NCBI GenBank assembly: GCA_040752815.1
Contig: JBFMGC010000011.1
Location: 6,352 to 70,351, forward strand
Origin: Candidatus Zixiibacteriota bacterium
Lineage (GTDB): Bacteria > Zixibacteria > MSB-5A5 > GN15 > FEB-12
Reading direction: 5' to 3'
Length of the DNA stretch: 64,000 nt
Part shown: one piece after another, positions 15,446 to 36,586 of the stretch
Layout of the letters: each line of letters begins with the position of its first letter
Numbering within the stretch: position 1 is the stretch's first letter
Translations under genes and position numbers: made by a program
Notes under the pieces: model-generated
The model's database searches: none
Told to the model about the DNA's origin: nothing
The model's input: only the letters and a program-made list of their open reading frames with translations

Positions 15446-17014
15446 TTGTCAACGGCTAACCGGACGAAAAGTTCCACGGTGGCCTCGGTCAGCAAGGTAT
15501 CCGGCGCCACCGCGATTTCCCGTGTCCTGGGCCTCGTCCGCGAGCAGGCGCAGGCCTATTTCTTCGGCGCGTCGATGGCCACCGACGCCTTCGTAGCCGC
15601 TTTCCGCATTCCCAATTTGCTGCGCGATCTTTTTGCCGAGGGGGCGCTGTCCGCCGCGTTCGTGCCGATTTTTAAAGACAAACTGGTGAACGAATCGGAG
15701 GACAGTTCATTTGCCCTTGCGCGTACGGTCGCCTCGGCGATCCTGCTGGTGGTCGGTGCGATCGTTCTGCTGGGAATGATCGCCACGCCGGTGCTGATCT
15801 TCATTTCGGCGAACGGCTTTACGGAGGACGCAGAGAAATTCGCCCTGACCATCGATCTCACCCGCATCATGTGGGTCTACCTGTTGCTCGTATCGCTTTC
15901 AGCTTTGGTGATGGGTATGTTGAACTCGTTTGGGCGGTTCGGAGTCCCTGCTCTGTCGCCCGCCATGTTCAACCTGGGGATAATCGCCTGTGTGTTTATC
16001 ATGTATCAATGGTTTGACGTTCCGATTTACGCGATGGCCATAGGTGTGCTGGTGGGCGGACTCGGCCAGTTGGCGATGCAACTGCCGCAGCTCTGGCGAA
16101 TCGGGTTCCGCTTCCGCTGGAGTTTCACCTTTTTTGACGAAGGTTTTCGCAAGGTGCTCCGAATGTTCCTGCCCATGGTAGCCGGGATGTCCGCCAGCCG
16201 GGTGAACATCCTGATCAGCACTTTGATGGCGTCATACCTGGTGGAAGGTTCAATCTCGTATCTCAATTACTCTTTTCGATTGATGCACTTCCCGCTGGGG
16301 GTGTTCGCTGTGGCGCTCGGCACGGTCGCTCTGCCCAACGCATCCGAGCTGGCCGCCCGTAGAGAATTTGATCGCCTCGGCGCGGCGCTTTCGGAGTCCC
16401 TCAGCCTCAACCTGTTTCTGATCATTCCCTCGGCGGCGTTTCTGGCGATCATAGGAACCGATCTGGTCGACGTTATCTATCGCTGGGGGCGGTTTTCGCA
16501 GGGTGACACCGTCAACACCGGCCTGGCGCTGCTGCATTATTCGTACGGGCTGATCGGCTTTGCCGCTGTCCGCGTGACCGTGCCGATTTACTATGCCCTG
16601 AAAGATTCCTCGCTACCGATGCGGATTTCGATAATCTCCGTCGCTGTAAACATCGCGCTCTATTATCCCCTGATGAAGCTGCTCAGCTTCGCCGGGCTGG
16701 CCGCGGCAACATCGATTGCCGGTCTGGTAAATTTCGCTTTGCTTCTCGTGTATCTTCCGCGAAAGGGGGTAAGCCTGGAGTACCGACCCCTCTTGTTCAG
16801 TTTCGTGAAAGTTGGCGTGGCATCGGCCGTCGCGTTTTATGGTGCATCAATGCTTCCCATTCCCGCATCATCTGACTGGCCCGAGGGCATCGCCAGGCTC
16901 TGGCAATTCGGGGCGAAGTTTACGGTGGGCGTGATCCTGTATCTGCTTCTATGTGCAATACTGAGAGTACCCGAGATGCGGCTCATCCAAAATCGAATTA
17001 GGCGACGGACATAA
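15446..17014 (+). CDS. murJ: Lipid II flippase MurJ (MviN)
   Basis: SRVLGLVREQAQAYFFGASMATDAFVAAFRIPNLLRDLFAEGALSAAFVPIF is the MurJ N-terminal signature. About 14 TM segments and 522 aa. TTG start as given by the ORF track. Confidence 0.9.
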   Translation: MSTANRTKSSTVASVSKVSGATAISRVLGLVREQAQAYFFGASMATDAFVAAFRIPNLLRDLFAEGALSAAFVPIFKDKLVNESEDSSFALARTVASAILLVVGAIVLLGMIATPVLIFISANGFTEDAEKFALTIDLTRIMWVYLLLVSLSALVMGMLNSFGRFGVPALSPAMFNLGIIACVFIMYQWFDVPIYAMAIGVLVGGLGQLAMQLPQLWRIGFRFRWSFTFFDEGFRKVLRMFLPMVAGMSASRVNILISTLMASYLVEGSISYLNYSFRLMHFPLGVFAVALGTVALPNASELAARREFDRLGAALSESLSLNLFLIIPSAAFLAIIGTDLVDVIYRWGRFSQGDTVNTGLALLHYSYGLIGFAAVRVTVPIYYALKDSSLPMRISIISVAVNIALYYPLMKLLSFAGLAAATSIAGLVNFALLLVYLPRKGVSLEYRPLLFSFVKVGVASAVAFYGASMLPIPASSDWPEGIARLWQFGAKFTVGVILYLLLCAILRVPEMRLIQNRIRRRT

Positions 17015-17030
17015 TTGTGAGCGGGGGACT

Positions 17031-19331
17031 GTGCTGAAAAGTTATCCCAGTCTTTTCCTACTTGGCTTTGTAGTCGCTGGAATCGTGGCGGCGTACCTGG
17101 TTACGCCGCCGTTGGCGTTGTGTGTCTCAGTAGGCGTAATTGCCCTGGCGCTGGCGGTATGGCAGCGCAGGAAGGAGCGCTGGGCCGTGTCGGCTCTCCT
17201 GGCCGGGTTGGCTCTGACTGCGGTGGCTGCGGTCAGCTTCACGCTGCGGTTCCATGTCGGCGGCACGGATCATATTCGGCAGGTCCTCGCGGTACCCACG
17301 CTGTGCCGGGTGTTCGGACAGGTCGACGACTGGCCTGAAATGAGACGGGGGAGGACCGAAATAACTATTGAAGTCGACTCGCTCTCCTTCCGCTCCGCTG
17401 CTGCTTCGCAGACTCGTCGAGTCTACGGACGCCTGCTTTTGAAGGTAACCGACACCACCACTTTGCTCCAGCGCGGCGATCGCATCGCTTTCTCTGCGCG
17501 CGTCTACCCGGTGCGTGCCGGGCGACACGACGACTTCGATTACGGTCGCTATCTCAACCTGCGGGGAATTTCCGCGCAGGCTTTCCTGCCCACCCTGCTA
17601 AGCGTACATGTGGATCGGCGCCCCCCTGTCGGTTTCTGGCCGATTGTAGATGACATCAGGGAGACCATTCGCGCGAGCTTCGACCGAAACCTCAGCCCGG
17701 TGACATCGGCCCTGGCGCGCGGTTTCCTCATCGGCGAAACCAGGGATATTCCCCCTGCCGTCTACACCCTGTTTCGCGACAGCGGCACGCTGCACCTGCT
17801 GGCAGTGTCCGGCGCCAACGTGGCCCTGGTGATCATCTTCTTTCTGTGGGTGATGCGCCCGTTCTGGCTGGGACCTGCCACCCGTTCGATCGTTCTCCTG
17901 ATTGTTATAGCTGTATTCGCAGGGGTTTCTTACGGGGACCCGTCGGTCATGCGCGCGTCTATTATGGCAGCGCTTGTTCTGGGTGCGCGCTTGCTCGGAC
18001 GCCCGTTCGATCTGAACAATATCATCGCGGTGACGGCGTTGATCGTCTTGCTCGTTCGGCCGGCGCAGCTTTTCGACGTAGGTTTCCAGTTGTCTTTCGT
18101 GACTGCCTGGGGGCTGGTTTTTGTCGTGCCGCGGCTGGCCGTGCTGTTCCAGCCGGTTCACGAGCGTCGCTGGTATCGGTGGCTGGTCTTGCCGGCAATG
18201 GTCGCTTTGGTCGCGCAGTTGTTTTCGACACCCTTGATTGCGCTGTACTTCGAGCGAATTCCCGTCATCTCTCTGGCGGCCAATCTGGCAGTTGTGCCGT
18301 TGGTGTCAGTCGGCGTCATTGGTATACTCGTCCTGCTGGTAGCTGATCTAATATGGCCATTGCTCGGCGCCTGGGTGGGCAGCCTAGTGAATCTCTGGCT
18401 GAACGCAGTCGTGATAGTCCTGCAGGTTTTCGGTGGCGACCACATGCCGGTTCTGGGGGCCGGTGCGCTTTTCGCTTCAAGCCTGGGGTCGTTGATAGTC
18501 GTCTTTATCTATGTGCTGCTCACTCTGACTGTAGTGGCAATCGTCCGCACATGGGCCAGAAAGGTTGTTGTATTCGGAGTTCTTCTGGCAGCAAACGCAT
18601 ACCTCGTCGCCGGTGTCGCGGCATCGTTGGACGGCGATTCAGCACGATTGCGAATCGAACGCATCCCCGGCGGATTGAGCGTTACGCTCTCGACACCCGA
18701 ACAAGCCGATGGCGATCTCGTCATCACCAATCTCACCCGTACGGCCTACGCCGCCGATTCCAGCATGCTCGTCCCGAACCTGCGCCGTCAAAATGTCTCA
18801 CGGCTTCGCCACCTGGTGGTGTTGGCCGCAGATTTCGATGCCATGGACTACATTCTGCGGCTGGCGCAGCGGTTTTCCGCTGACACCATCTGGATAGCTC
18901 GAGGTCTTGCAGGTACGGTCAGTGACGCGCAGGGCTTTCGTCGTGACATCGCATACGCCGGCGCCATTGTCCCGTTCGGCGGCCGAATCGATTCCACGGG
19001 ACGGTCGGGATGCCACCTTGGAGACGGGTATGTCGGCATTCGGGTCGGCGACGCTCAAATTGAAGTTGTGGAGTCGACGTCGCTGCATCGGCCGTCTTCA
19101 CTACCTGAGGCACAGAACCGTTTACTGGTAATCAGCGGACGCTGGACGCCAAACTCCGAAGACTGGCGCCGGATTGCAGAAGCCCGATATGACCGAATCA
19201 TCTGTTCAGAAATCGCACAGGCGTCCGGAGCCTCGTGGCCGGATGTCGAATTTGACACCGATGCCGTCACCCCAGACTTCGTGCAGGATTTGTCGCGCCT
19301 TGGCATGATCGAAATCGACCTCCCTCGCTGA
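17031..19331 (+). CDS. comEC: ComEC/Rec2 family DNA internalization channel protein
   Basis: N-terminal TM/OB region, then the competence domain with GTLHLLAVSGANVALV and many TM helices. The C-terminal ~230 aa has the position of the metallo-beta-lactamase domain but lacks an HxHxDH motif. Confidence 0.85.
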   Translation: MLKSYPSLFLLGFVVAGIVAAYLVTPPLALCVSVGVIALALAVWQRRKERWAVSALLAGLALTAVAAVSFTLRFHVGGTDHIRQVLAVPTLCRVFGQVDDWPEMRRGRTEITIEVDSLSFRSAAASQTRRVYGRLLLKVTDTTTLLQRGDRIAFSARVYPVRAGRHDDFDYGRYLNLRGISAQAFLPTLLSVHVDRRPPVGFWPIVDDIRETIRASFDRNLSPVTSALARGFLIGETRDIPPAVYTLFRDSGTLHLLAVSGANVALVIIFFLWVMRPFWLGPATRSIVLLIVIAVFAGVSYGDPSVMRASIMAALVLGARLLGRPFDLNNIIAVTALIVLLVRPAQLFDVGFQLSFVTAWGLVFVVPRLAVLFQPVHERRWYRWLVLPAMVALVAQLFSTPLIALYFERIPVISLAANLAVVPLVSVGVIGILVLLVADLIWPLLGAWVGSLVNLWLNAVVIVLQVFGGDHMPVLGAGALFASSLGSLIVVFIYVLLTLTVVAIVRTWARKVVVFGVLLAANAYLVAGVAASLDGDSARLRIERIPGGLSVTLSTPEQADGDLVITNLTRTAYAADSSMLVPNLRRQNVSRLRHLVVLAADFDAMDYILRLAQRFSADTIWIARGLAGTVSDAQGFRRDIAYAGAIVPFGGRIDSTGRSGCHLGDGYVGIRVGDAQIEVVESTSLHRPSSLPEAQNRLLVISGRWTPNSEDWRRIAEARYDRIICSEIAQASGASWPDVEFDTDAVTPDFVQDLSRLGMIEIDLPR

Positions 19332-19517
19332 TTAGTCTCAGAGCTCATGCGCCAAGGGATGTCGATTTAGCGTGCCATAGGGCGATCCTGCCCAACAGCG
19401 CCCCGGCTGGCTGCCCTTTCGCTTAAAGGAAAGCCCCTTTTGGCCCGATAACTATAAAGAATTGGCGTCAAAACAGGACCAGACTGCCTATCGAACTATG
19501 TCCAGGAAGTGACTAAG

Positions 19518-20729
19518 ATGAGTTTATCAGGTAATCTGAGAACAGTGGCGTTCCCCGACATCCTTCAGCTTCTTGCCACCGGCAAGAAAACCGGAATGCT
19601 GGAGTGCCGTACCACGACCCGCCAGAAGGAAGTTGCCTTCAAAGACGGCAATATCGTGTACGCGTCGTCGGTCAACAGCGCGGAGGATTTGCTCGGCAAC
19701 ATGCTGCTGAAACGGGGGCGGATTTCCAAGTCGGATCTCGAACGCGCGATCGGCCTGCACAAACAGACCGGCCGCCAGCTCGGCACGACCCTGATCGACA
19801 TGGGGCTGTTCGACAAGAATGAGATCGCCGAGTGCCTCAAGCTCCAGATCGAGGAGATCGTGTACAACCTGTTCTCGTGGCAGGAGGGCGATTTTGTCTT
19901 CCACGAGGGAGTCGCGCCGCGCAACGCGCCCTTTTTGATCGAGCTGGCCACCATGAACGTGATCATGGAGGGCACGCGCCGAATCGACGAGTGGATGGAG
20001 ATTCAGAAAGTACTTCCGGCCGACGACGTTCTGCTGCGCATCTCCAAGTCACCTAAGTCGAACCGAGAAGAACTGACCATTTCGATGGATGAGTTCCGCC
20101 TGCTGTCGCTCATCAACGGTGAACGAACCCTCCCCGAGCTGATCAATCTCTCGCCTATGGGCGAGTTCGTCACCTGCCGAGCGCTCTACCGTCTGATTGT
20201 CAATCACCTCGTTGAGGTGGCCGGCAAGAGCGAAAAGGCCCAGGATGCGGAACTCGAGGACGAGGAAGAGGCGGTGCTGGCGATTGTCTTCAAGCTGTAC
20301 TCAAATTGTTTCTATCAGGTGCACTCCCGCGTAGCCCAAATGCTGGGCGGCGAGAACACCAAGTACCCGTCGTTCGCATCGAAGTACCGCTCCGGCCTGA
20401 CCACGTTCTTCCCTGGGGTAGATCCCCGCTCCGACCTGATGCCGCCATTTGAAAAGTTTGTGGCGGCCGTGCGCTCCATGCCCGAACACATCCGCTATCA
20501 TCAGCTCATGGCCGGACTGGAGAGGATGCTTTCCGAGCAGCTCCTGTATGTCTACCAGCTTCTGGGCGACGGGGTCTTTCATGACACGATGACCAAAGTG
20601 AAAATGGAAATATCGGAACCGCTGGCCAGTCGGCGCGATCTGGTCAAACGGTACAACATCGAAGAAGATTTCTACGGTACGATCAAGCGTGCCGACAAAA
20701 TGGTGAAGCTTTTGAGGGGTTCGTTATGA
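19518..20729 (+). CDS. PATAN/DUF4388 domain protein
   Basis: The N-terminus SGNLRTVAFPDILQLLATGKKTGMLECRTTTRQKEVAFKDGNIVYASS matches the DUF4388 (PATAN) signature as I recall it. Start is set at the ATG at 19518, 8 nt after AGGAAG. The C-terminal ~200 aa is not recognised. Confidence 0.7.
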   Translation: MSLSGNLRTVAFPDILQLLATGKKTGMLECRTTTRQKEVAFKDGNIVYASSVNSAEDLLGNMLLKRGRISKSDLERAIGLHKQTGRQLGTTLIDMGLFDKNEIAECLKLQIEEIVYNLFSWQEGDFVFHEGVAPRNAPFLIELATMNVIMEGTRRIDEWMEIQKVLPADDVLLRISKSPKSNREELTISMDEFRLLSLINGERTLPELINLSPMGEFVTCRALYRLIVNHLVEVAGKSEKAQDAELEDEEEAVLAIVFKLYSNCFYQVHSRVAQMLGGENTKYPSFASKYRSGLTTFFPGVDPRSDLMPPFEKFVAAVRSMPEHIRYHQLMAGLERMLSEQLLYVYQLLGDGVFHDTMTKVKMEISEPLASRRDLVKRYNIEEDFYGTIKRADKMVKLLRGSL

Positions 20730-21088
20730 AGATGACCGGCATAACTACGTTGGTTCTGGTTTTTGGCCTGGTCGGCCGCAGCGAGGCGGCCAACCTGGGT
20801 GTGATTGTCAGCCCGCCGAATTTTCTGAGTCTGGTGGTGCTTGGCCTCGCGGTGGCGGCCATCGTGGTCGGCTTCCAGCTCTTGGGAGTCATTCGCGGAG
20901 GTTACCTTAGCCGGGCGTGGCAGATCTTTATCGCCGGTTTCGGCGTCCTGGCGCTCGCTCAAATCCTCACTCTGGTGCGGGTGACCGAGATTGCACCCAT
21001 CCCGGCCTGGGTGGCTCCGGCTTTGACGGCAATCGCCGCGGGAGTGTTCTTCTACGGAGTTTTCGAGACGAAAAAGGTCTTGAGCTGA
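20726..21088 (+). CDS. Small integral membrane protein (signal peptide + 3 TM)
   Basis: An ATGA start/stop overlap with the upstream gene suggests translational coupling. MKMTGITTLVLVFGLVGRSEA is followed by three hydrophobic helices. Confidence 0.6.
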   Translation: MKMTGITTLVLVFGLVGRSEAANLGVIVSPPNFLSLVVLGLAVAAIVVGFQLLGVIRGGYLSRAWQIFIAGFGVLALAQILTLVRVTEIAPIPAWVAPALTAIAAGVFFYGVFETKKVLS

Positions 21089-21194: not shown

Positions 21195-22064
21195 ATGACA
21201 GTCGACTTGGAAATCGATAATCGCATCACCAAGTGCCAGAAGATACTGGAGATGGATCCCAATTCGCAGATCTTCGCGGCGCTGGCGGAGGCGTACCGCA
21301 AAAAGGGCGAACTGGAAAAGGCGTTCCAGGTCTGTCACAATGGCCTGCGCCTGCATCCTAACTACGGCGCCGCCCACATGGTGATGGCCAGGGTCAACCT
21401 TGATCGCGGTCTCTACGATTGGGCTGAAGCCGAGTTGGAGAGGGCGCGGCAGGTCGACGGGAACAGCCGGACGATCGAACTCCTTCTGGCGGAGATCTAC
21501 ATATACAAGGGCGAGTACCAGGCCGCCATCCGCCTACTCAAGCGGCTCGCCGCATCCGATCCCGGCAACGATCATGTTCAGCGCCTGCTCGATATCGCTC
21601 TGCGCATTCCGCAGGAACAACAGGCTGAGCTTGGTGGCCCGGAGCCGGAACCGGAGCCGGTAAAACCTGAGCCGGTCACGCCGACTGCGCCCGTGCCAAG
21701 ACCCTTGGCTCCGACCCGCCTGAGTCCGGCTGAGATGCTGGCCGAATCGCTTCAGATAGGCGGTGTGGGCGGGGCGTTGTATGTCAATTCGGAAGGCTTG
21801 GTCCTCGAGACGAAGTGGAGTTCCAAAGCCGATCCGGCGGTATGTGGTGCGTCCATGGCTGAGGTCAGCAAGTTCCTCGACCAGGAGCTGATGAAGATTT
21901 CATTTGGCCGGGTTGGAGCAGTGCTTATCGAGACGGGTCGCCAGGTGTTCTATATCATCCGCGTAAGCGGCGGGATGTTTGTCATCATGAGCGACGCCAA
22001 CGTAAATCTCGGTTCGCTGCGAATGAGGATGGCCACGCTGGTCGAACGAGTGCAGATACTTTAG
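21195..22064 (+). CDS. TPR repeat - Pro-rich linker - Roadblock/LC7 domain fusion protein
   Basis: The N-terminus has about 3-4 TPR units (FAALAEAYRKKGELEKAFQVCHNGLRLHPN.., LLLAEIYIYKGEYQAAIRLLKRLAASDPGN). A PEPEPEPVKPEPVTP linker follows. The C-terminus GGVGGALYVNSEGLVLETKW...VLIETGRQVFYIIRVSGGMFVIMSDANVNLGSLRMRM is a Roadblock/LC7 pattern. Confidence 0.7.
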   Translation: MTVDLEIDNRITKCQKILEMDPNSQIFAALAEAYRKKGELEKAFQVCHNGLRLHPNYGAAHMVMARVNLDRGLYDWAEAELERARQVDGNSRTIELLLAEIYIYKGEYQAAIRLLKRLAASDPGNDHVQRLLDIALRIPQEQQAELGGPEPEPEPVKPEPVTPTAPVPRPLAPTRLSPAEMLAESLQIGGVGGALYVNSEGLVLETKWSSKADPAVCGASMAEVSKFLDQELMKISFGRVGAVLIETGRQVFYIIRVSGGMFVIMSDANVNLGSLRMRMATLVERVQIL

Positions 22065-22075
22065 GCAGGGCAGAT

Positions 22076-23059
22076 ATGGAAATGACCGGTCAGACTAACC
22101 GACGAATCATCATCTTCTCTTTGGGTGCGGTGATTGTACCTCTGGTGGTGTTTCCGTCCCGCCTCGGGACCGATATTGCCCGGGCCTCCCTGGTCAATGC
22201 GCTTTACGAACTGGTTTACTACGGCGTTGTGATATTCATATTCCACCGCAGTACCACGCTGCTTCGGCTGATTCAGGGAGCCGGGGTCTGTTTGATCTAC
22301 CGCCTCGCCCTCGGCGCAGTGTTCGGACTGCTGCTGGCGGCTGTCTATTCGCTGCAGACCAGGGTATCACTCACGCTGGGGATGTCCGGTTATCTCCCCG
22401 CTATACTGTTTCAAATAGCGCTGGCGCCGTTCGTGCTCAAGCCGGTGGTCGATCAGCTCTATGGTGATGAACCAGTACGGCGTCGGGCTGCCCCGCCAAT
22501 TCAGACCGACACGCGCGCGGAGTTTGTCCGCCCGGCACACGTTCCGGTCAAGCCTAAGGCGGCCCCGGAGGCGCCGAAGGTCCCGGCATTCGCGGCTGCC
22601 CGTAAACCCGATTCCGCAGCATACCACCGGAGTGCGGACTCCATGCGTGAACTTAACGGTTTCGATAGAGCCGTCTATTACCTTGGCGAACACAGCGCCG
22701 TGCAGCTGGCGACAATCGTGGACAGCGAGGGACTCACTCTGGGCAGCTTCAAGCGCGGTCAGGTCCGCCCTGAAGACTGGGCGCCGCTGGCTCTGCTGGT
22801 CGTGGGGGAGAGCGGCCAGGTGCTGGAGCGGGGGAATTTGGACGGTCTTGAAAAAGTCGACTTAATACTAAAAGATAAACGCCTGGTTGTGGCGCGGCCC
22901 GAGGGTCTCTACCTGATGGTCCTGGCCGAGCGCCACGATGATGACCTGCTCAACATCCGCATCAACCAGGCGCTGGAGATGATTAATAAGTTTGTCGCCG
23001 AGCGTTACGGCAATAAACTGCACCCGAACGCGGAGAGAGTTCATGTACCAAGTGCTTAG
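22076..23059 (+). CDS. Polytopic membrane protein with C-terminal Roadblock/LC7 domain
   Basis: About four N-terminal TM helices and a basic/Pro-rich linker. The C-terminus VQLATIVDSEGLTLGSF...KVDLILKDKRLVVARPEGLYLMVLAERHDDDLLNIRINQALEMI is a Roadblock pattern. Confidence 0.65.
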   Translation: MEMTGQTNRRIIIFSLGAVIVPLVVFPSRLGTDIARASLVNALYELVYYGVVIFIFHRSTTLLRLIQGAGVCLIYRLALGAVFGLLLAAVYSLQTRVSLTLGMSGYLPAILFQIALAPFVLKPVVDQLYGDEPVRRRAAPPIQTDTRAEFVRPAHVPVKPKAAPEAPKVPAFAAARKPDSAAYHRSADSMRELNGFDRAVYYLGEHSAVQLATIVDSEGLTLGSFKRGQVRPEDWAPLALLVVGESGQVLERGNLDGLEKVDLILKDKRLVVARPEGLYLMVLAERHDDDLLNIRINQALEMINKFVAERYGNKLHPNAERVHVPSA

Positions 23060-23384
23060 CGATCTCAATAAGACGCCCGGTGTGACCGGCTCAATGGTAG
23101 TCGGTAACGACGGTATCGTAATTGCCGCCGACATGGCGTCCGGTTTCGAGGGTGAGACAGTCGGCGCCCTGGCGGCGTCGATCACGTCCAACATCCAGAA
23201 ATCCCTGGACCGTTTGGACACCACGCCCTGGACTCAGGTGACAATAGAGGCGGACGATGCCAAGCTCTTCTTCACCGACGCCAGCCTGGGCATACTCGTG
23301 GTCACTACCGAAAAGGTGGTGAACATCGGGCTGATTCGTCTGGAGATACGAAACGCCATAGACAAGCTCAAGCTGTCGACCTGA
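23043..23384 (+). CDS. Roadblock/LC7 domain protein (MglC-like, stand-alone)
   Basis: Start is set at the ATG at 23043, a 17-nt overlap with the upstream gene. MYQVLSDLNKTPGVTGSMVVGNDGIVIAADM...TIEADDAKLFFTDASLGILVVTTEKVVNIGLIRLEIRNAI. Confidence 0.7.
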   Translation: MYQVLSDLNKTPGVTGSMVVGNDGIVIAADMASGFEGETVGALAASITSNIQKSLDRLDTTPWTQVTIEADDAKLFFTDASLGILVVTTEKVVNIGLIRLEIRNAIDKLKLST

Positions 23385-23412: not shown

Positions 23413-24471
23413 ATGGTCTCAATCAACTACTCGGCTCGTGAGGTATGCTGCAAAATTGTCTACTACGGACCGGGTTTATCCGGCAAGACGACCAACCTGC
23501 AGTATATCCACTCGAAGGTGCCGCAGAACACCCGGGGCAAGCTGATCTCGCTGGCCACCGAAGCCGACCGCACCCTGTACTTCGATTTCCTGCCCATCAA
23601 TATAGGCACGATCAACGATTTTCAGGCGAAGTTCCAGTTGTATACGGTGCCGGGACAGGTCTACTACAACGCTACCCGCAAGCTGGTGCTTCGAGGCGTG
23701 GACGGCCTGGTTTTTGTCGCCGACAGCCAGGCGGACAAGATGGATGAGAACATCGAGTCGCTGGCCAACCTCGAAGAAAACCTGCGCGAATACGGCTACG
23801 ATATCAATCAGTTGCCGCTGGTGCTGCAGTTCAATAAGCGTGACCTGCCGAACGTGCTGTCGGTTCAGGAACTCAACGCCCGTCTTAATCCCCGAGGCCT
23901 GCCTTTTTTCGAGGCCTCGGCGCCATCAGGAAAAGGAGTATTCGACACCCTCAAGTTGATCATAAAGCTGGTGCTGGACAAAGCCAAATCCGCCGGATCG
24001 TCGGCGATGAGCCAACGGGCAGCGCCGCCGCCAGCGGAAGCGGCGCCGTATCCATCCGGTGAGCGGGTGGCCGCCGCGCCGCAGCCGACCGCCGAGACAA
24101 TTCCGACTCGAACCGACTCGCCCCAGCCGGTAACCGCCGCACCCGACTGGAGAACCGCCGCGCAACCCGCGGCGAGTGAGTGGAACGCTCCGTCGCAGCC
24201 GACAGTGGCGGTAGCTCCCGATCCCGCGTTTCGTCCGTATCCGGGCAGTGATCGCCAGATGTCTGCGGAGCGTCGCACGGGCCGCGTGCCTGTCGTGTCC
24301 GCACCACGGGAGCTGCCGGCGGCATCATTAGAGAAAAACATCGGTTCCGATTCACGTGAGCACGCGACCGGCGCCGGTTCGATGAATACACCCCAGATGG
24401 CCCCCTCGCTCAGGCGTCGCGCCGCGAACAAGAAACGCAGCTTTTTCAAGCGCCTGTTCGGGATCAAATAG
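23413..24471 (+). CDS. mglA: MglA-type Ras-like GTPase with ~155-aa C-terminal low-complexity extension
   Basis: aa 1-195 are collinear with M. xanthus MglA as I recall it. Matching features are INYS.RE..CKIVYYGPGLSGKTTNLQYI (P-loop), ADRTLYFDFLP (intrinsic Arg), YTVPGQ (switch II), NKRD and GVFDTLK. A Pro/Ala-rich tail then ends in KKRSFFKRLFGIK. Confidence 0.88.
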   Translation: MVSINYSAREVCCKIVYYGPGLSGKTTNLQYIHSKVPQNTRGKLISLATEADRTLYFDFLPINIGTINDFQAKFQLYTVPGQVYYNATRKLVLRGVDGLVFVADSQADKMDENIESLANLEENLREYGYDINQLPLVLQFNKRDLPNVLSVQELNARLNPRGLPFFEASAPSGKGVFDTLKLIIKLVLDKAKSAGSSAMSQRAAPPPAEAAPYPSGERVAAAPQPTAETIPTRTDSPQPVTAAPDWRTAAQPAASEWNAPSQPTVAVAPDPAFRPYPGSDRQMSAERRTGRVPVVSAPRELPAASLEKNIGSDSREHATGAGSMNTPQMAPSLRRRAANKKRSFFKRLFGIK

Positions 24472-24489: not shown

Positions 24490-24975
24490 ATGTCTGACGA
24501 CAGTCTGATTATCTACGAAGAAGAAATAGCAACCATTGATGCACTTCTGAAGAAGATGCTCAAAGGGGCCGAGGCCAAGTGCGCTCTGCTGGTGGACAAG
24601 GACGGCCACCTGATCACGCGACAGGGCTTTACCCACTCGCTTGATACCACTGCGCTGGCGGCACTGCTGGCGGGCTCTTTCGCCTCGACCCGGGAAATCG
24701 CCCGGCTGGTCGGCGAATCCGAGTTTTCGGTGCTCTTCCACCAGGGTAAGAAAGACCACATCCACATGTCTATTGTGGGGGACCGCTCCATTCTTGTAGT
24801 TATATTCGACGATCGCACCACGATCGGTATGGTTCGCCTGTACGCCAAGGAGACGGCCGATGAGCTCGCCCGGGTGTTCAAGAACATCCGGGAGCGGAAA
24901 GAACCAGCCGAAGCGCTAAGCGGGGATTTCTCGGACAAGGCGCAGGAAAGGCTGAACGACATCTTCCAGGATTGA
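24490..24975 (+). CDS. mglB: MglB (Roadblock/LC7 GTPase-activating protein of MglA)
   Basis: LIIYEEEIATIDALLKKMLKGAEAKCALLVDKDGHLITRQG...LDTTALAALLAGSFA...HMSIVGDRSILVVIFDDRTTIGMVRLYAKETADEL closely parallels M. xanthus MglB as I recall it. A GGAGGA Shine-Dalgarno is present. Confidence 0.85.
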   Translation: MSDDSLIIYEEEIATIDALLKKMLKGAEAKCALLVDKDGHLITRQGFTHSLDTTALAALLAGSFASTREIARLVGESEFSVLFHQGKKDHIHMSIVGDRSILVVIFDDRTTIGMVRLYAKETADELARVFKNIRERKEPAEALSGDFSDKAQERLNDIFQD

Positions 24976-25052: not shown

Positions 25053-26750
25053 ATGTCTGCGGAACTTAGTGCCATTCTGGTAAAAGCGGGGAAGATCACC
25101 CAGGATCAGGCGAATGCGGCACTGGAACGTTCCAAACAGACCAAGGAAAAATTCTCCAAAGTCCTGGTTGACCTGGGGGCGGTCGCCTCGGAAGACGAGG
25201 TCATAAACTTTGTCGGCAAGCACCTTAAGATCGGTGCGCTGCGGCTGAGCGATGTCGAGCTCAACCCCGAAGTAGTCAAGCTCATCCCGCTCGATATCGC
25301 CCGCAAGTTCAAAGTCATCGCCATCAGCAAGATCGGCAAGACGCTGCTGGTGGCCATCAGCGACCCCAATAACATCTACGTACTCGACGCTATCAAGTTT
25401 ATCACCGGTTGCAATGTCCAGCCGGCGATCGCGCCCGAAAGAGAAATCGAGAAGGCGATCGAGCAATACTACGCCGACACCGGCGCCCTGTCTGAAATCG
25501 TCAAAGGTCTCGAAGACGATCCGGATCTCGAGGTCGTTTCCACCGAGGACATCCCCTCCGAGACCGACCTGATGTCTCAGATTCAGGACAAGCCTCTGGT
25601 CAAGCTGGTGGATTCGATCATCGGCGACGCCATCCGGATGGGGGCTTCCGATATCCACTTCGAGATGTACGAGAAGAAGATTCGCGTGCGCTACCGTATC
25701 GACGGCGAGCTTCAGGAGATGGCCCCGCTGCCCTTCAAATACCGCGCCGCCATCGTGTCGCGTATCAAGATTATGGCCGAACTGGACATTTCGGAACGTC
25801 GGTTACCCCAGGACGGGCGCATCAAGATCAAGATCACCGGTCGCACGGTCGACCTTCGTGTCTCGGTGCTGCCGACCATATTCGGCGAGAAGGTCGTAAT
25901 GCGAATTCTCGATCCGATGGCGCTGCGGATAGATATGACCCAGCTCGGTTTTCGCGAGCCCGACCTGGCTCGCTTCCATGAGCGCATTCACGCGCCGTTC
26001 GGCATTGTGCTGGTCACCGGCCCGACGGGTTCAGGTAAGACGACAACGCTGTACTCCGCGCTTCAGCAGTTGAATACAATCGATGTCAACATCATGACCG
26101 CCGAGGACCCGGTCGAGTTCAATTTCGAGGGGATTAATCAGGTAGCGGTCAAGCCGGACATCGGACTGACCTTCGCCAACGCCCTGCGCTCATTCCTTCG
26201 TCAGGACCCGGACATCATCATGGTCGGTGAGATTCGTGATAGTGAGACCGCCGAGATCGCCATCAAGGCGGCGCTCACGGGCCATCTCGTGTTTTCGACG
26301 CTGCACACCAACGACGCGCCCTCGTCGGTGACTCGTCTAATCGATATGGGTACGCCCAATTACCTCGTGGCGTCGGCCACGCAGCTCATCATGGCCCAGC
26401 GCATGGTCAAAAAGATCTGCCAGAAGTGTAAGGAAGAGGTCAACCTGACCGCAGAGCAAGTGGAAGCGCTCAAGATGGGGCCGGAGATGCTCAAGGGTAT
26501 TCGCGCGTTCCGGGGGAAAGGGTGCAGCGCCTGCAACAACACCGGCAAGTCGGGCCGAACGGGTATCTATGAGGTAATGCCGGTAACTCCGGCTATCGAA
26601 GAGATGATCCTCAAAAAGGCTGCCGATTCCGCCATTAGAAAAGTCGCGATGGACGAGGGGATGTTCTCGCTGCGCATGGCGGCGGTGGACAAGATGAAGC
26701 AGGGCGTCATCAGTATCGACGAAGTTTTCTCTGTGACCGGTACGAACTAA
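25053..26750 (+). CDS. pilB: Type IV pilus assembly (extension) ATPase PilB / GspE family
   Basis: N-terminal T2SSE_N-type domain. Walker A GPTGSGKTTTLYS, Asp box, Walker B/His box (IIMVGEIRD, GHLVFSTLHTND) and a tetracysteine CQKC..CSAC. Confidence 0.9.
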   Translation: MSAELSAILVKAGKITQDQANAALERSKQTKEKFSKVLVDLGAVASEDEVINFVGKHLKIGALRLSDVELNPEVVKLIPLDIARKFKVIAISKIGKTLLVAISDPNNIYVLDAIKFITGCNVQPAIAPEREIEKAIEQYYADTGALSEIVKGLEDDPDLEVVSTEDIPSETDLMSQIQDKPLVKLVDSIIGDAIRMGASDIHFEMYEKKIRVRYRIDGELQEMAPLPFKYRAAIVSRIKIMAELDISERRLPQDGRIKIKITGRTVDLRVSVLPTIFGEKVVMRILDPMALRIDMTQLGFREPDLARFHERIHAPFGIVLVTGPTGSGKTTTLYSALQQLNTIDVNIMTAEDPVEFNFEGINQVAVKPDIGLTFANALRSFLRQDPDIIMVGEIRDSETAEIAIKAALTGHLVFSTLHTNDAPSSVTRLIDMGTPNYLVASATQLIMAQRMVKKICQKCKEEVNLTAEQVEALKMGPEMLKGIRAFRGKGCSACNNTGKSGRTGIYEVMPVTPAIEEMILKKAADSAIRKVAMDEGMFSLRMAAVDKMKQGVISIDEVFSVTGTN

Positions 26751-26911: not shown

Positions 26912-27988
26912 ATGGTCTCGTTGCGCGAATTGCTGGAACAGATGGTTCGAATGGGTGCATCGGATCTGCACCTCACCGCCGGATCCCCGCCCGTGGTGCG
27001 GGTTGACGGTAAACTTCAGCGAATGCCTTATGACATGCTCACCAGTGAGGAAACGAAGAAGATTGCCTATTCGATGCTCAACGAGAAACAGAAGCTAAAA
27101 TTCGAACAGAATTGGGAGCTTGATTTTTCTTTCGGTATCGAATCAATGAGCCGGTTCCGCGCCAACATCTTCATGCAGCGTGGCAACGCGGCAGTCGCTC
27201 TGCGCCAGATTCCCTATGAGATCAAGACTTTTGAGCAGCTTGGTCTGCCTAAAGTGATATCGGATTTCGCCAAGTTGCCGCGTGGCCTCGTACTCGTGAC
27301 TGGCCCGACCGGCTCCGGTAAATCGACCACGCTCGCGGCCGTAATCGACAAAGTCAATAAAGAGCGCCCGGTGCACATAATCACGGTGGAAGATCCGATC
27401 GAATACCTGCACCGCCACCAGATGGCGCTCATAAACCAGCGCGAGGTATACTCGGATACGCCGTCGTTCGCGTCCGCACTGAAGTACGCCCTACGCGAGG
27501 ACCCGGACGTGGTCCTGGTGGGTGAGATGCGTGACCTGGAGACGATCGAATCGGCGCTCTCGATATCGGAGACCGGCCACCTGGCTTTCGCCACGCTGCA
27601 CACCAACTCGTGCGCGGAGACGATCAACCGAATTGTGGACGTCTTCCCGACCAATCAGCAGGAGCAGATTCGGGTGACGCTGTCGTTCACGCTGCAGGCC
27701 GTGGTGTCACAGGTTTTGATACCGAAAATCGGCGGCGGGCGGGTGCTCGCCATGGAAATCATGATTGCCACGCCGGCGGTCAGAGCGATCATCCGCGATG
27801 ACAAGATCCATCAATTGTACTCGATGATCCAGTCCGGCCAAAAATACGGAATGAAGACGATGAATCAGTCGCTGGCCGAGCTGTACCAGGCCGGTAAGAT
27901 TTCCATCAACGATGCCATGGGCACCAGCCACAACCAGCAGGAGCTGAGCGAAATGCTCTCGCGGCAGAAAGCGCCGGCCTACGCCTGA
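26912..27988 (+). CDS. pilT: Twitching-motility (retraction) ATPase PilT
   Basis: GASDLHLTAGSPPVVRVDG, GPTGSGKSTTLAA, VLVGEMRDLETI, GHLAFATLHTNS and an AIRNLIRE-like AVRAIIRDDKIHQ motif. 358 aa. Confidence 0.9.
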   Translation: MVSLRELLEQMVRMGASDLHLTAGSPPVVRVDGKLQRMPYDMLTSEETKKIAYSMLNEKQKLKFEQNWELDFSFGIESMSRFRANIFMQRGNAAVALRQIPYEIKTFEQLGLPKVISDFAKLPRGLVLVTGPTGSGKSTTLAAVIDKVNKERPVHIITVEDPIEYLHRHQMALINQREVYSDTPSFASALKYALREDPDVVLVGEMRDLETIESALSISETGHLAFATLHTNSCAETINRIVDVFPTNQQEQIRVTLSFTLQAVVSQVLIPKIGGGRVLAMEIMIATPAVRAIIRDDKIHQLYSMIQSGQKYGMKTMNQSLAELYQAGKISINDAMGTSHNQQELSEMLSRQKAPAYA

Positions 27989-28027: not shown

Positions 28028-29227
28028 ATGCCAGTTTTCGAGTACAAGGGCAAGACCCTGGCCGGGGCCGCAGTCCAGGGCACCATGAAGGCCAACACCC
28101 GCGCCGATCTGGAGCGAGTGCTGCGCCAGAACCGGATCATGGTGGTATCGATAAACAAAAAGGCCGCCGAGATCGATATCAAATTTGGCACCGGCATCAA
28201 GAGGGTCGAAATATCCCGCTTCACACGCCAGTTCTCGACCATGATTGGGGCCGGCCTGCCCATGGTGCAGTGTCTCGAAATCCTGGGCGCCCAGACCGAG
28301 AACAAGGAACTGGCGAAGGTAATCAACCAGGTCCGCGAGGCTGTACAGGGCGGCGCAACCCTCTCCGATGCGATGAAGCGGCATCCGAAAATATTCGATG
28401 AGCTCTACACCAACATGGTGGAGGCCGGTGAAGTCGGCGGAGCGCTCGATACCATCCTGGTCCGCCTTGCGGTCTACCGCGAAAAGGCCGACCAGCTCAT
28501 TCGCAAGGTCAAAGGCGCCATGGTATACCCGAGCGTCGTTATGATTGTCGCCGCCCTGGTCACATTTGGTATGTTGACCTTTATCGTGCCGGTGTTCGCC
28601 AAGATGTTCGCCGGACTCGGTGCTGAGCTTCCCGAGCCCACCAAAGTGGTGCTGGCGATATCGCACTTCCTGAGTTCAAACATCCTATACCTGTTCTTTG
28701 GGTCGGTTGGTCTGCTGGCGGTGTTCCTTTATTGGAAACGCACCCCCAGCGGCGGTATGGCGGTGGACAAGGCTATGCTGCGGATTCCGGTCCTCGGTAA
28801 TCTGGTCAGGAAATCGTCAGTGGCGCGTTTCACCCGCACACTGGCGACACTTCTGGCCTCAGGCGTTTCGATTCTGGAAGCCCTTGACATCACCGCCAAG
28901 ACGGCGGGCAACAAAGTCGTGGCGCGGGCGATTAACCGCTCGGTCGTGGCCATCGCTGAGGGCGATACCATCACCGGACCGTTGAAGACGTCCGGCGTCT
29001 TCCCGCCAATGGTAATCCAGATGATCGGCGTCGGCGAAAAGACCGGCGGCCTGGACGAGATGTTGAACAAGATCGCCGACTTTTACGACGAGGAAGTAGA
29101 CGCGGCCGTGAGCGCGCTGACCTCGGTGATCGAGCCGGTGATCATCGTGTTCATGGGCATTGTGATCGGCGGCATTATGATCGCGATGTATCTGCCGATG
29201 TTCGACATAATTGGAAAGTTCAACTGA
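28028..29227 (+). CDS. pilC: Type IV pilus platform protein PilC / GspF family
   Basis: Two GspF repeats (FTRQFSTMIGAGLPMVQCLEIL.. and FTRTLATLLASGVSILEALDI..). Three TM segments. 399 aa. Confidence 0.9.
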   Translation: MPVFEYKGKTLAGAAVQGTMKANTRADLERVLRQNRIMVVSINKKAAEIDIKFGTGIKRVEISRFTRQFSTMIGAGLPMVQCLEILGAQTENKELAKVINQVREAVQGGATLSDAMKRHPKIFDELYTNMVEAGEVGGALDTILVRLAVYREKADQLIRKVKGAMVYPSVVMIVAALVTFGMLTFIVPVFAKMFAGLGAELPEPTKVVLAISHFLSSNILYLFFGSVGLLAVFLYWKRTPSGGMAVDKAMLRIPVLGNLVRKSSVARFTRTLATLLASGVSILEALDITAKTAGNKVVARAINRSVVAIAEGDTITGPLKTSGVFPPMVIQMIGVGEKTGGLDEMLNKIADFYDEEVDAAVSALTSVIEPVIIVFMGIVIGGIMIAMYLPMFDIIGKFN

Positions 29228-29298
29228 TCGCGTGGCGCTTTCGGTTGCGTTCAAGTAAGTGAGTCAGGCGGCCCGCCACGGCGGGCCGTTTGCCGTAT

Positions 29299-31011
29299 AT
29301 GGATAGTACTTCTGCGCCTCAAAGACTCGGCTTGTTTCTGCCGCTGCGACTGGCCACCTATGTGGTCCTGATCGCTATTGTCGTTGCCTGGATGCACTAC
29401 CCCCGGTATCTGCACTTTCAGGTCATCCTCTACTCGTTCGTGACGTTGGCGTTCGCGATCAGTCTCGCGCTGGAGAAAAGGTCTCGTCTGACCCGGGTGA
29501 CTCAGGTACTGATTGCTCTGCAGTTCCTGCTCGAAATCACGCTGGAGACCGGGATAATTTTCGTCACCGGCAATCTGCACTCGCCGTTTTCAGCCCTTTT
29601 TGTCCTTACTATCGTATCGGCGGCGCTGGCCTACCGCGTGGCCGGCACCCTGGTGGTGGCGTCAGTGGTGTCGGCCGCTTACGTTCTTGCCATCTGGCTT
29701 GGATTGAGTAACGTCGCCGGTCAGTTCAGTGTCAAGGTTTTCGAGACCATCTTCTCCTCGAACGATTTGGCGTTCTACGGTATCCTTCTGCACCTGCTCG
29801 TTTTCTATCTTACGGCATTCATATCCGGCTATCTGGCCGAACGGCTCAGTCACCAGGAGCGCCAGTTGCACGACGCTTCCAGCGCGCTCAAGCGGGCGCG
29901 GCTCGAAACGGATGACATCCTGCGGCACCTCAATTCCGGCCTGCTGACGGTCGATGCCGCCGGCCGCATCATATACTTCAACCGCGCGGCGGAACGGATT
30001 CTCGGCTACACCGAAGAAAACGTCAAGGGGATGCCCTGCACCGAGGTGTTCTCGGAGCGGATGCCGGAGCTGGCCGCCTGCCTGATGACCGGGGTACTAT
30101 CGCGATCAAGCTACCCGCGGAGGGAGCTGGAAATTGTCGATACCAGCAACCGGCGTGTGCCGGTGGGGCTGTCCACCTCGATACTTACCGAGGACTTCGG
30201 CGAACTTCGCGGCGTGATCGCCATATTCTCGGACCTGACCGAGGCCAAGGAACTCGAGCAGAAAGTCCGCAACAGCGACCGACTGGCCGCAGTGGGCGAG
30301 CTTTCGGCCTCGATCGCTCACGAAATACGCAACCCCCTAGCGGCCATATCGGGGTCGGTTGAAGTCCTGCAAAAGGAGCTTCAGCTTGACGGAGAAAACC
30401 ACCGGCTCATGGCCCTGATCACCAAGGAATCCCAGCGGCTCAATAAGATCCTCAGCGATTTCCTGACTTACGCCCGCATGGGGCGCCCCGCTTACAATAA
30501 AGTAGAACTCTGCCACGTGGTCGCCGACATCCGCGAGCTTTTGCGACGCCACGAGGCGGTGGCGGACAACATTACGCTTGGGTTCGAGACCGATGAATCG
30601 ATCGCCTATGTTTTCGGCGATGAGGACCTGATCCGGCAACTGCTTATGAATCTGGCCATCAATGCCTGCGAGTCGTTTGATGGCCGTCCCGGGGATGTGA
30701 CCTTTCGCCTGGAGCGCGGCCCGGGTGAAAATGTGATCCGCTTGAGCGTTGGCGACAACGGCCCCGGTATCGAACCGAGGCTGCAGGAGAAGATCTTCCA
30801 GCCATTTTACTCCACCAAGAAATCAGGAACCGGCCTGGGTCTTGCCATAGTCCATCGTATTTGCAATGCGCTGCGCTTGCGCCTCGACCTGGATAGCCTT
30901 CCCGGCGAAGGAACCACCTTTACGGTTTGGTTCAGCAGTTACACGCTGGGCCGTTCGATTGCGCCCGGCCTGACCCCTACCGATGAGCGCGCTTCAGTTG
31001 CGCCGTTCTAA
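29299..31011 (+). CDS. PilS-like membrane sensor histidine kinase (multi-TM - PAS - HisKA - HATPase)
   Basis: About six N-terminal TM helices and a PAS segment (LLTVDAAGRIIYFNRAAERILGY). H-box SASIAHEIRNPL, N-box LMNLAINACES, G1 VGDNGPGI, G2 GTGLGLAIV. No response regulator is adjacent. Start is ATG 29299 or TTG 29290. Confidence 0.8.
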   Translation: MDSTSAPQRLGLFLPLRLATYVVLIAIVVAWMHYPRYLHFQVILYSFVTLAFAISLALEKRSRLTRVTQVLIALQFLLEITLETGIIFVTGNLHSPFSALFVLTIVSAALAYRVAGTLVVASVVSAAYVLAIWLGLSNVAGQFSVKVFETIFSSNDLAFYGILLHLLVFYLTAFISGYLAERLSHQERQLHDASSALKRARLETDDILRHLNSGLLTVDAAGRIIYFNRAAERILGYTEENVKGMPCTEVFSERMPELAACLMTGVLSRSSYPRRELEIVDTSNRRVPVGLSTSILTEDFGELRGVIAIFSDLTEAKELEQKVRNSDRLAAVGELSASIAHEIRNPLAAISGSVEVLQKELQLDGENHRLMALITKESQRLNKILSDFLTYARMGRPAYNKVELCHVVADIRELLRRHEAVADNITLGFETDESIAYVFGDEDLIRQLLMNLAINACESFDGRPGDVTFRLERGPGENVIRLSVGDNGPGIEPRLQEKIFQPFYSTKKSGTGLGLAIVHRICNALRLRLDLDSLPGEGTTFTVWFSSYTLGRSIAPGLTPTDERASVAPF

Positions 31012-35835: not shown

Positions 35836-36064
35836 GCAGCTTACTCAGGCCTATCTGACTGCACCGACGCTGTCGGGCTGAGCCGCCCGCGGCATGCGGA
35901 AAAAAAGACTCATCCTTCTCGACAATTGACGGGTAGAATAGGTTGAAATGGACCGTGTAATATTATGCTTGAAAAGCGCCCCTCATGGGCGCATATTTGC
36001 AGGCAGCAATATGTGGTTCGGGCCCGCCGTTGCGGGCCAAAATGACAACCTCAGGAGGTTTTCG

Positions 36065-36586
36065 ATGAGTTTCCGTTGGTTGAGCGTGATGTTTACGGCA
36101 GTTGCGGTTCTGGCGTTCACGGGGTCGCTGATGGCCCAGGAGGCCGCCAAGACCGAGCCGGCCAAGCACCAGTATGTCGGTGTCAAGGCCTGCAAACTGT
36201 GCCACAAGAAGGACGGAATTTTCGACAGCTGGTCGGCAACTGCACACGCCACCGCTTTCGACAAACTGTCCGAGGAAGACAAGAAGAACGAGGCGCTAAA
36301 GCCCTATTATACGACCGGGACTACCGCCGAGGGTGAGCTTCTAACCGGCGTGCAGTGCGAGGTTTGCCACGGGCCTGGTTCGGATTACAAGAAGAAGTCA
36401 GTTATGGAAAGCCGGGAGGCATCGGTGGCCGCCGGGCTGCTTATTCCGGACGCCAAGACCTGTGCCAAGTGCCATAACGATAAGGCTCCGGCCAAGCTGG
36501 CGGCTACAGCCAAGGACTTCGATTTCGCCAAGCTGAAAGAGAAAGGGGCCCACGCTGCGGCGATCAAGACCGAGGCGGCCAAGTAA
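36065..36586 (+). CDS. Small periplasmic trihaem c-type cytochrome
   Basis: Start is set at ATG 36065, preceded by AGGAGG. Signal peptide MSFRWLSVMFTAVAVLAFTGSLMAQEA. Three CxxCH motifs (CKLCH, CEVCH, CAKCH). Confidence 0.8.
   Translation: MSFRWLSVMFTAVAVLAFTGSLMAQEAAKTEPAKHQYVGVKACKLCHKKDGIFDSWSATAHATAFDKLSEEDKKNEALKPYYTTGTTAEGELLTGVQCEVCHGPGSDYKKKSVMESREASVAAGLLIPDAKTCAKCHNDKAPAKLAATAKDFDFAKLKEKGAHAAAIKTEAAK

Follow-up and report, generated by a model that had tools for sequence, protein, structure and literature searches.

Within a 64,000-nucleotide stretch of a Candidatus Zixiibacteriota genome (assembly GCA_040752815.1, contig JBFMGC010000011.1, forward-strand positions 6,352 to 70,351; hereafter, the window), an operon that leads directly into type IV pilus genes encodes a 352-residue homologue of the bacterial GTPase MglA with a 155-residue C-terminal tail. 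We consider it probable (roughly 0.75) that this protein is a group-1 MglA that has acquired a C-terminal membrane tether and works at the inner membrane, a reading supported by comparative evidence from homologous sequences. The usual picture of bacterial Ras-like GTPases is of small, soluble switches brought to their site of action by partner proteins. The tether proposed here would consist of a disordered spacer of ~130 residues, two linear motifs and a terminal polybasic amphipathic peptide of the form KKR[G/S]FFKRLFGIK.

The gene is a single open reading frame (ORF) at 23413..24471 on the + strand. Residue 196 begins at nucleotide 23998, and the C-terminal KKRSFFKRLFGIK is encoded by nucleotides 24430-24468, followed by a TAG stop codon at 24469-24471; the coordinates and sequence given in an earlier, sequence-only reading of this DNA proved exact when the ORF was read again. 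The parts of the protein are as follows, with mean pairwise identities taken from an alignment of 62 orthologues.

23413..24003, + strand: MglA GTPase core, aa 1-197 (E=1.8e-81 to Myxococcus xanthus MglA; 85% identity)
24004..24390, + strand: Ala/Pro/Ser/Thr-rich linker, predicted to be disordered from its composition and from AlphaFold2, aa 198-326 (17-22% identity by segment)
24229..24249, + strand: island [FY]RPYPGS inside the linker, aa 273-279 (R274, P275, P277 and G278 invariant)
24391..24420, + strand: PQMAPSLRRR, the start of the polybasic region, aa 327-336 (78% identity; M329 invariant)
24430..24468, + strand: basic amphipathic terminal peptide KKRSFFKRLFGIK, aa 340-352, a putative membrane-targeting sequence (MTS; 89% identity over the last 13 residues; AlphaFold2 helix at 344-349)

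By its sequence hallmarks, the core is a bona fide group-1 MglA small GTPase. Residues 3-197 align with the MglA proteins of M. xanthus (PDB 5ymx, E=1.8e-81) and Thermus (3t12, E=1.3e-70). The reference structures are 195 aa (6hjh) and 198 aa (3t12) long and stop where the tail starts here, in agreement with the statement in the sequence-only reading that these proteins have about 195 residues and no tail. The hallmarks of group 1 include an intrinsic Arg finger beside the G2 Thr and the G3 motif TVPGQ (Wuichet & Sogaard-Andersen 2015, PMC4316618). The P-loop (G1) GPGLSGKT at aa 19-26 has the group-1 form GxxxxGK[ST], the Arg finger R53-T54 aligns with R53-T54 of M. xanthus MglA, the G3 motif at aa 78-82 is TVPGQ, the group-1 form that replaces DxxGQ, and G4 is NKRD at aa 141-144; all four are invariant across the 62 orthologues. 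Coupling to a gene for the Roadblock/LC7 protein MglB, a further group-1 trait, is provided by the next gene downstream (24490-24975). By every sequence criterion of the family survey the core belongs to group 1; the protein departs only from the operational limit of a single domain of at most 240 aa. That survey dropped all longer sequences, removing 39 of 488 MglA-clade proteins; it notes occasional PATAN neighbours and says nothing on amphipathic or membrane-anchoring extensions of MglA (PMC4316618).

Judged from its homologues, the tail is genuine, and strong purifying selection maintains it. The homologue set comprises the 120 best database matches, 322-379 aa long, with full-length identities of 58-80% and values of 83-88% for a few matches aligned over the core only. 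All 120 end in a sequence of the type ...PQMAPSLRRRxxxKKRGFFKRLFGIK, with the terminal motif present in every one; homologues stopping near aa 195, which the sequence-only reading had named as the result that would overturn it, do not occur among them. In 77 species-level genomes, the last 12 codons take the form of 69 distinct DNA sequences, and all synonymous codons are used. The 77-genome codon set was picked by peptide pattern and the 120-homologue set was not, and the two are read together: given the saturated synonymous change in the motif codons and a homologue set that is independent of the pattern, the target of selection is therefore the peptide. No other part of the protein, the GTPase core included, is as well conserved as this terminal peptide; F344 and F349 are invariant and L348 is nearly so. 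Tail length is constrained among the orthologues (125-182 aa, median 156.5), and the linker sequence is variable.

The linker (aa 198-326) contains 20% Ala, 16% Pro, 9% Ser and 8% Thr, and large hydrophobic residues make up 15% of it versus 37% of the core. This composition matches the earlier description of a core extending to about aa 195 followed by a low-complexity segment rich in P, A, S and T, with the tail now placed at 198-352. An AlphaFold2 model, run on the 62-sequence alignment, was poor overall (mean pLDDT 59) and was used solely for the pattern of coil and helix in the tail. It leaves residues 202-343 without secondary structure, mostly at pLDDT below 50, and gives the tail one short helix at 344-349 (pLDDT ~62-66). 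The disorder ascribed to the tail in the sequence-only reading thus agrees with the coil pattern and with the composition, the two lines from which disorder of the linker is predicted.

Beyond that reading, two further conserved tail motifs came to light, as did the wider spread of anchored MglA proteins described below. The island at 271-280 has 62% mean pairwise identity, and RP[YFW]PG is present in 120/120 close homologues as well as in the distant relatives P0122 and P0138. M[AS]P, from PQMAPSLRRR, is found in 119 of the 120, and related PxM[AQ]xS motifs recur in 8 distant relatives. Both motifs are probably docking sites, with [FY]RPYPGS a candidate short linear docking motif. An obvious, though speculative, candidate for reading these internal motifs is the tetratricopeptide repeat (TPR) domain encoded upstream in the same operon.

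The targeting sequence of Escherichia coli MinD is KGFLKRLFGG (PMC5471200), as the sequence-only reading had given it, and the likeness to MinD noted there is borne out. Between the family consensus GFFKRLFG and the core of the E. coli MinD sequence, 7/8 positions agree, and in [S/G]FFKRLFG, as in the MinD MTS, basic residues flank hydrophobic ones at i, i+1, i+4 and i+5. The motif ends two residues short of the stop codon in the window and at every MglA-type locus scanned. By calculated estimate, SFFKRLFGI of MglA has a hydrophobic moment (muH) of 0.648, a mean hydrophobicity <H> of 0.76 and a Wimley-White interfacial sum of -2.32 kcal/mol; GFLKRLFGG of E. coli MinD gives 0.606, 0.55 and -1.55 kcal/mol. 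Cationic-amphipathic criteria single out 2 sites in the 15,517 eleven-residue windows of the long ORFs of the window, and one of the two is this C-terminus. The net charge of the last 18 residues is +8. There is no C-terminal prenylation motif: the protein ends ...FKRLFGIK and has no Cys after residue 13, and the tail therefore falls outside the lipidated Ras anchor class, though it may work like a hypervariable-region anchor.

The same decapeptide occurs on other proteins. A DNA scan for K[RS]GFFKRLFG, with one genome per GTDB species, returned at least 120 loci, against ~0.3 chance matches expected by our own calculation. An MglA core lies upstream in the same ORF at no fewer than 70-71 of these loci, about a dozen further loci are MglA-type tails cut by the locus edge, and the remainder carry the decapeptide on unrelated proteins. 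Among the matches listed, five MinD equivalogs (L054, L063, L089, L092 and L103), scoring 330-365 bits on TIGR01968 (cutoff 212.9), end in it, and one FtsY (L104; TIGR00064, 334 bits, cutoff 260.7) has it near the N-terminus. E. coli FtsY starts MAKEKKRGFF. The C-terminus of MinD and the N-terminus of FtsY are the two classic sites of bacterial amphipathic membrane-targeting peptides. Also among the matches listed, the decapeptide ends class A penicillin-binding proteins (PBPs), a secretin, an MscS-type channel and others. Its occurrence on unrelated proteins therefore makes it a recurrent, portable peptide that is not confined to cytoplasmic proteins. KRGFFKRLFG was seen at or near the C-terminus of class A PBPs of Bacteroidota and Acidobacteriota (L012, L016, L018, L045, L101 and L110), of a secretin (L091), of an MscS-like protein (L088) and of an NlpB/BamC-like protein (L010); in the PBPs and the secretin it may bind the membrane from the periplasmic face.

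The observation that bears most heavily on tethering comes from distant relatives. A HMMER search of 1.84 billion cluster representatives gave 2,395 relatives at E<=1e-30, of which the best 150, all 255-717 aa long, were inspected. At least 36 of these 150 have MTS-like basic amphipathic ends by a conservative rule, for example KKKGFFGGLFNKDK, GGFLSKLFNKDNP and KKKSFFLFRLFGKK; the rule overlooks P0125, P0168 and P0269, which end in sequences of the KKRGFFSRLFG or KKKGFFGRLFG type. In 17 of the best 150, the protein ends instead in a hydrophobic helix of ~20 residues of the tail-anchor type. These counts are not convertible to frequencies; we suspect that short MglA proteins were subsumed in clusters with longer representatives and that low-complexity tails inflated the scores. 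The genomic context of five relatives was inspected, three of the MTS type (P0138, P0146 and P0128) and two with a transmembrane (TM) helix (P0170 and P0207). All five have a gene for an MglB-type Roadblock protein directly downstream, four (not P0207) have a PatA_N gene upstream, and the neighbourhood of P0128 matches the window gene for gene from MurJ and ComEC onward. Because a TM helix replaces the amphipathic peptide at the end of a variable tail in these relatives, membrane attachment itself appears to be the selected function; it is mainly this substitution, hard to square with docking on a specific protein, that sets our confidence in the tether.

Side observations on the long relatives are given here. 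MglA-family proteins of 340-520 aa with a predicted TM helix at the end, which makes them tail-anchored, are P0144, P0161, P0170, P0171, P0187, P0197, P0206-P0209, P0215, P0221, P0232, P0248, P0251 and P0259 (loci L123 and L126), each with a Roadblock gene directly downstream. At least one of these clusters has a member from Planctomycetota. A second long family, which accounts for 16 of the best 150, starts MA[ST]INYA.RE, is 440-717 aa long and in some members has poly-Gln runs; a conserved K-K-P-[VI]-N-P-[KR] motif stands just before a different MTS-like end (GFLSKLF, NFLDNLF). It includes P0146-P0148, P0154, P0162, P0164, P0172, P0183, P0203, P0240, P0249 and P0252. A third long group, starting MVLVSYSGKE (including P0165, P0177, P0182, P0185, P0188, P0190 and P0194), has a conserved, apparently beta-rich C-terminal segment, ...VPVTLxPEDLxxGxxLRLVLEI..., without membrane-anchor features.

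The tailed mglA gene sits in a conserved module. Synteny was counted over the 71 species-level loci that bear the MglA tail; these are 8-kb loci, many of them cut at the edges, and wherever they reach, the block from PATAN to PilT is kept in order and orientation across the 71 genomes. The genes in the window are the following.

15446-17014: MurJ, upstream of the block
17031-19331: ComEC, upstream of the block
19509..20729, + strand: PATAN (PatA_N/DUF4388) protein, first gene of the module (PF14332, E=1.4e-32; syntenic in 34/71 loci)
20726..21088, + strand: small integral membrane protein of 120 aa (hydropathy segments; no Pfam family; syntenic in 36/71 loci)
21195..22064, + strand: TPR-Roadblock protein with a C-terminal Roadblock domain (TPR_19, E=1.1e-15; hhalign to a Roadblock profile, 100%, E=1.9e-47)
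22076..23059, + strand: TM-Roadblock protein with ~4 N-terminal hydrophobic segments, aa 7-125 (hydropathy; syntenic in 63/71 loci)
23046..23384, + strand: small Roadblock/LC7 protein, directly upstream of mglA (Robl_LC7, E=2.7e-14; syntenic in 66/71 loci)
24490..24975, + strand: MglB-like Roadblock protein, putative GTPase-activating protein (GAP) (Robl_LC7, E=2.7e-14; syntenic in 69/71 loci)
25053..26750, + strand: PilB-type type IV pilus extension ATPase (T2SSE, E=1.8e-137, and MshEN; syntenic in 65/71 loci)
26912..27988, + strand: PilT-type retraction ATPase (T2SSE, E=1.1e-45; matched in 55/71 loci, a count in which about a dozen are weak cross-matches inside PilB, fewer loci truly reaching pilT)
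28028..29227, + strand: PilC-type platform protein (T2SSF, E=4.9e-68)
29290..31011, + strand: PilS-like sensor histidine kinase (6TM_PilS, PAS, HisKA, HATPase_c)

Four Roadblock-domain proteins are thus encoded in the mglA operon. The mglB-like gene begins 18 nt past the mglA stop codon, and its product finds its best NCBIfam model in NF052242 (Thermus-type MglB), over the full length at E=5.4e-27, below the equivalog cutoff. For the TM-Roadblock protein, the C-terminal half (22631-23059) has no Pfam match even at E<=5, BLASTP against MglB finds nothing, and the match to the MglB profile itself is negligible (hhalign probability 2.6%). Against a Roadblock profile, a 62-orthologue profile of the C-terminal domain reaches an hhalign probability of 92.1% (E=6.1e-7, 99 columns). 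Together with the hydrophobic segments, this profile match backs the earlier description of a membrane-anchored Roadblock protein two genes upstream of mglA.

Some details of these neighbours were noted in passing. The Roadblock domain of the TPR protein (21699-22064) matches LAMTOR5 (E=2e-4) slightly better than Robl_LC7 (E=1.3e-3), both below curated cutoffs. With its mechanically called start, a TTG at 22992, the ORF of the small Roadblock protein shares 68 nt with the end of the TM-Roadblock gene; the ATG at 23046 (MYQVLSDL...) is the likelier start and leaves an overlap of 14 nt. In the window (15446-19331), as at the locus of a distant relative (L127), MurJ and ComEC directly precede the PATAN-MglA-pilus block. 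A DNA-uptake channel gene may thus belong to the conserved neighbourhood, which would be in keeping with a role for a competence pilus.

How the tether might work can be outlined from these elements. On contact with the anionic inner leaflet, the last 9-13 residues would form a short helix lying in the membrane plane, with F344, F345, L348, F349 and I351 inserting into the bilayer and the flanking Arg and Lys residues binding phospholipid head groups. The GTPase would thereby be held at the cytoplasmic membrane surface by a flexible leash of ~10 nm, our estimate for a disordered chain of ~140 residues. There it could pass through its GTP/GDP cycle in two dimensions under the MglB-type GAP and the small, TPR-containing and integral-membrane Roadblock proteins, with PilB and PilT, the type IV pilus motors encoded next door and working on PilC, as the probable outputs. 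Direct allosteric coupling of the anchor to the nucleotide state is unlikely because of the long disordered spacer. Because a single MinD MTS is reportedly weak (PMC8155659), binding may be reversible or transient, and it may gain strength from the additional Arg and Lys residues or from the avidity of a complex.

Several points weigh against this interpretation. One copy of the MinD MTS from E. coli is reported not to bind membranes to a significant extent unless the protein dimerises (PMC8155659). The C-termini of PBPs and of a secretin are expected to be periplasmic, and the peptide is accordingly not exclusively an anchor for the cytoplasmic inner leaflet. That PQMAPSLRRR and RPYPGS are so strongly conserved shows the tail to have functions beyond tethering, and the terminal helix of the AlphaFold2 model is of only moderate confidence. 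Finally, the muH of the last 11 residues (0.495) is not significant against shuffled sequences (p ~0.23). The validated MinD peptide likewise fails the shuffle test (p=0.13-0.31); as a stand-alone test at such lengths, muH is uninformative, and it was replaced by the 9-residue comparison, the Wimley-White sum and the background scan of the window ORFs given above.

The best-surviving alternative, which we hold to be unlikely, is that the terminal peptide, and possibly the whole tail, docks on a protein encoded in the operon (the TPR of the TPR-Roadblock protein, PilB, PilT, MglB or PATAN), its basic and aromatic residues fitting a groove of the partner as other C-terminal peptides dock on cytoskeletal or motor partners. 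In its favour, the RPYPGS and M[AS]P motifs are very unlikely to bind lipid, and the TPR protein, a classic type of peptide binder, keeps strict synteny. Conservation of the last 13 residues is also tighter than a generic amphipathic helix would require, and a lone MinD-type MTS is reportedly weak. However, the same decapeptide is carried by MinD, FtsY, PBPs and MscS in unrelated phyla that lack this operon, which points to a generic target such as the membrane, and replacement of the terminus by a TM helix in relatives with the same module suits membrane attachment and not a specific groove.

Considerably less probable still is that the tail serves mainly as a disordered scaffold or spacer, in multivalent assembly or a condensate at the pilus base, with a basic end that binds a polyanion such as nucleic acid or polyphosphate and touches the membrane only incidentally. 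A long, low-complexity linker of constrained length and variable sequence would suit such a role, as would the strongly positive end; yet polyanion binding does not need the invariant F344 and F349 or the nearly invariant L348, and both the identity with MinD and FtsY peptides and the TM-helix replacement point to the bilayer. An artefactual tail (from a frameshift, from reading through a stop codon since lost, or from a misassembly that joined a 195-aa MglA to noncoding or out-of-frame sequence) is a reading with a negligible chance of being right, for although canonical MglA has ~195 residues and the region is GC-rich with long spurious ORFs on the opposite strand, 120/120 homologues from independent assemblies and at least 71 species-level genomes keep one ORF of 322-430 codons with the same C-terminal motifs, the terminal one through saturated synonymous change. 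Frameshift or read-through as the origin of the tail is thus refuted, every homologue retaining the ORF and the motifs.

A membrane-tethered MglA has likenesses to, and differences from, several known systems. The G domain is ~68% identical to those of M. xanthus and T. thermophilus MglA (our own alignment count) and shares with them R53, TVPGQ, NKRD, the coupling to an MglB-type Roadblock gene and the link to type IV pili. Characterised MglA proteins, of 195-198 aa, are soluble, single-domain and recruited to the pole by partners, whereas the protein described here has a tail with three conserved motifs and an MTS-like end, in an operon with four Roadblock-domain proteins directly upstream of pilB, pilT and pilC. 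K-Ras4B and Rit/Rin, the last two without CAAX, consist of a G domain, a disordered variable linker and a C-terminal polybasic or hydrophobic anchor. The layout here is the same; unlike Ras hypervariable anchors, however, this tail has no Cys, CAAX or lipidation site and ends in GIK, and its linker has 5-10 times the length. Convergence, and not homology of the tails, best accounts for the resemblance. As in Ragulator-Rag, a small GTPase is placed under several Roadblock proteins, one of which anchors the assembly to the membrane; in Ragulator the anchor is the lipidated LAMTOR1 and the Rags carry Roadblock domains of their own, whereas here the four-TM Roadblock protein and the tail of the GTPase itself are the candidate anchors.

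SofG, the MglA paralogue of M. xanthus, works through bactofilins, and we know of no description of a terminal MTS for it. This GTPase of the MglA family has segments extending past its G domain and acts on PilB and PilT; MglB does not regulate it (PMC4316618). The MinD MTS resembles the peptide described here in its position at the extreme C-terminus, its core sequence and its muH, which is similar or higher here. In MinD, no spacer separates the peptide from the folded ATPase, and ATP-dependent dimerisation gates the weak affinity of the peptide (PMC8155659), whereas here a ~140-residue spacer and a longer polybasic run come before it and the GTPase is not known to form dimers; common descent of the two peptides is beyond test at so short a length. 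FtsY carries the same decapeptide (L104) at its N-terminus, on a signal recognition particle receptor GTPase of a different GTPase class.

What is new here is the combination of an MglA GTPase with an already known type of membrane-targeting peptide. A literature search of incomplete coverage found no published MglA with a targeting sequence or tail anchor. According to a 2024 study of Asgard small GTPases, the C-terminal membrane-insertion extension of Rab arose during eukaryogenesis (PMC10933270). Comparison with these proteins suggests that the MglA tail is an independent, lipid-free bacterial answer to the membrane-attachment problem of Ras and Rab. The layout of a G domain, a flexible linker and a membrane anchor would then have evolved in bacteria too, and repeatedly, by way of both an amphipathic peptide and a TM helix. 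A simple, testable model follows, in which polarity GTPases are confined to two dimensions beside type IV pilus motors; to a specialist in bacterial polarity, a tailed MglA would be unexpected and easy to test. The partners of the two new linear motifs could show how MglA talks to the pilus machinery outside Myxococcus, and the terminal peptides are putative natural short membrane tags (KKRGFFKRLFGIK).

More tentatively, and at slightly less than even odds, we propose that membrane-tethered MglA proteins, far from being peculiar to Zixibacteria, form a large, overlooked class of prokaryotic Ras-like GTPases, with a long disordered linker akin to a hypervariable region leading to a MinD/FtsY-type peptide or a TM helix, encoded in a conserved PATAN-Roadblock(s)-MglA-MglB module, in some cases together with an integral-membrane Roadblock protein. 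The length limit of the reference survey, which left out longer MglA-clade proteins, would explain why such a class escaped notice, and the set of long proteins so excluded is untapped material. If the proposal is true, the class would be a lipidation-free bacterial counterpart of the Ras hypervariable anchor and of Ragulator-like Roadblock scaffolds, with a full GTPase/GAP cycle, possibly including a guanine nucleotide exchange factor, on the membrane surface controlling type IV pilus motors.

By their public labels, the 71 MglA-type loci comprise 35 from Zixibacteria/Zixiibacteriota, 20 from 'uncultured Ignavibacteriales/-aceae', 12 from an unclassified 'bacterium' and one each from GN15, the FCB group, 'Acidoferrum' and 'Deferrimicrobium'. 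Tailed proteins labelled Ignavibacteriales are 87-95% identical to those labelled Zixibacteria (94.8% for L014 and L064; also L004/L007 and L120/L027). Because proteins under different labels are nearly identical, we treat the tailed orthologue group as belonging to the Zixibacteria lineage and make no claim for true Ignavibacteria. The public taxonomic labels of these Ignavibacteriales and Zixiibacteriota metagenome-assembled genomes are inconsistent.

The N-terminus reads MVSINY in 118 of the 120 best homologues. An identical NCBI protein from a Candidatus Zixiibacteriota metagenome-assembled genome (P0001, 317 aa, 'ADP-ribosylation factor-like protein') has an internal GTG, at V36, as its annotated start (region 23413-23520 of the window); that start would delete the P-loop, and P0028 shows the same mis-call. 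Because the homologues begin MVSINY and the V36 start loses the P-loop, the ATG at 23413 is the true start of mglA. Elsewhere in the window, and unrelated to the MglA tail, positions 35948-36586 encode a small multihaem cytochrome with an MtrC/MtrF-like domain and matches to cytochrome c7/c554.

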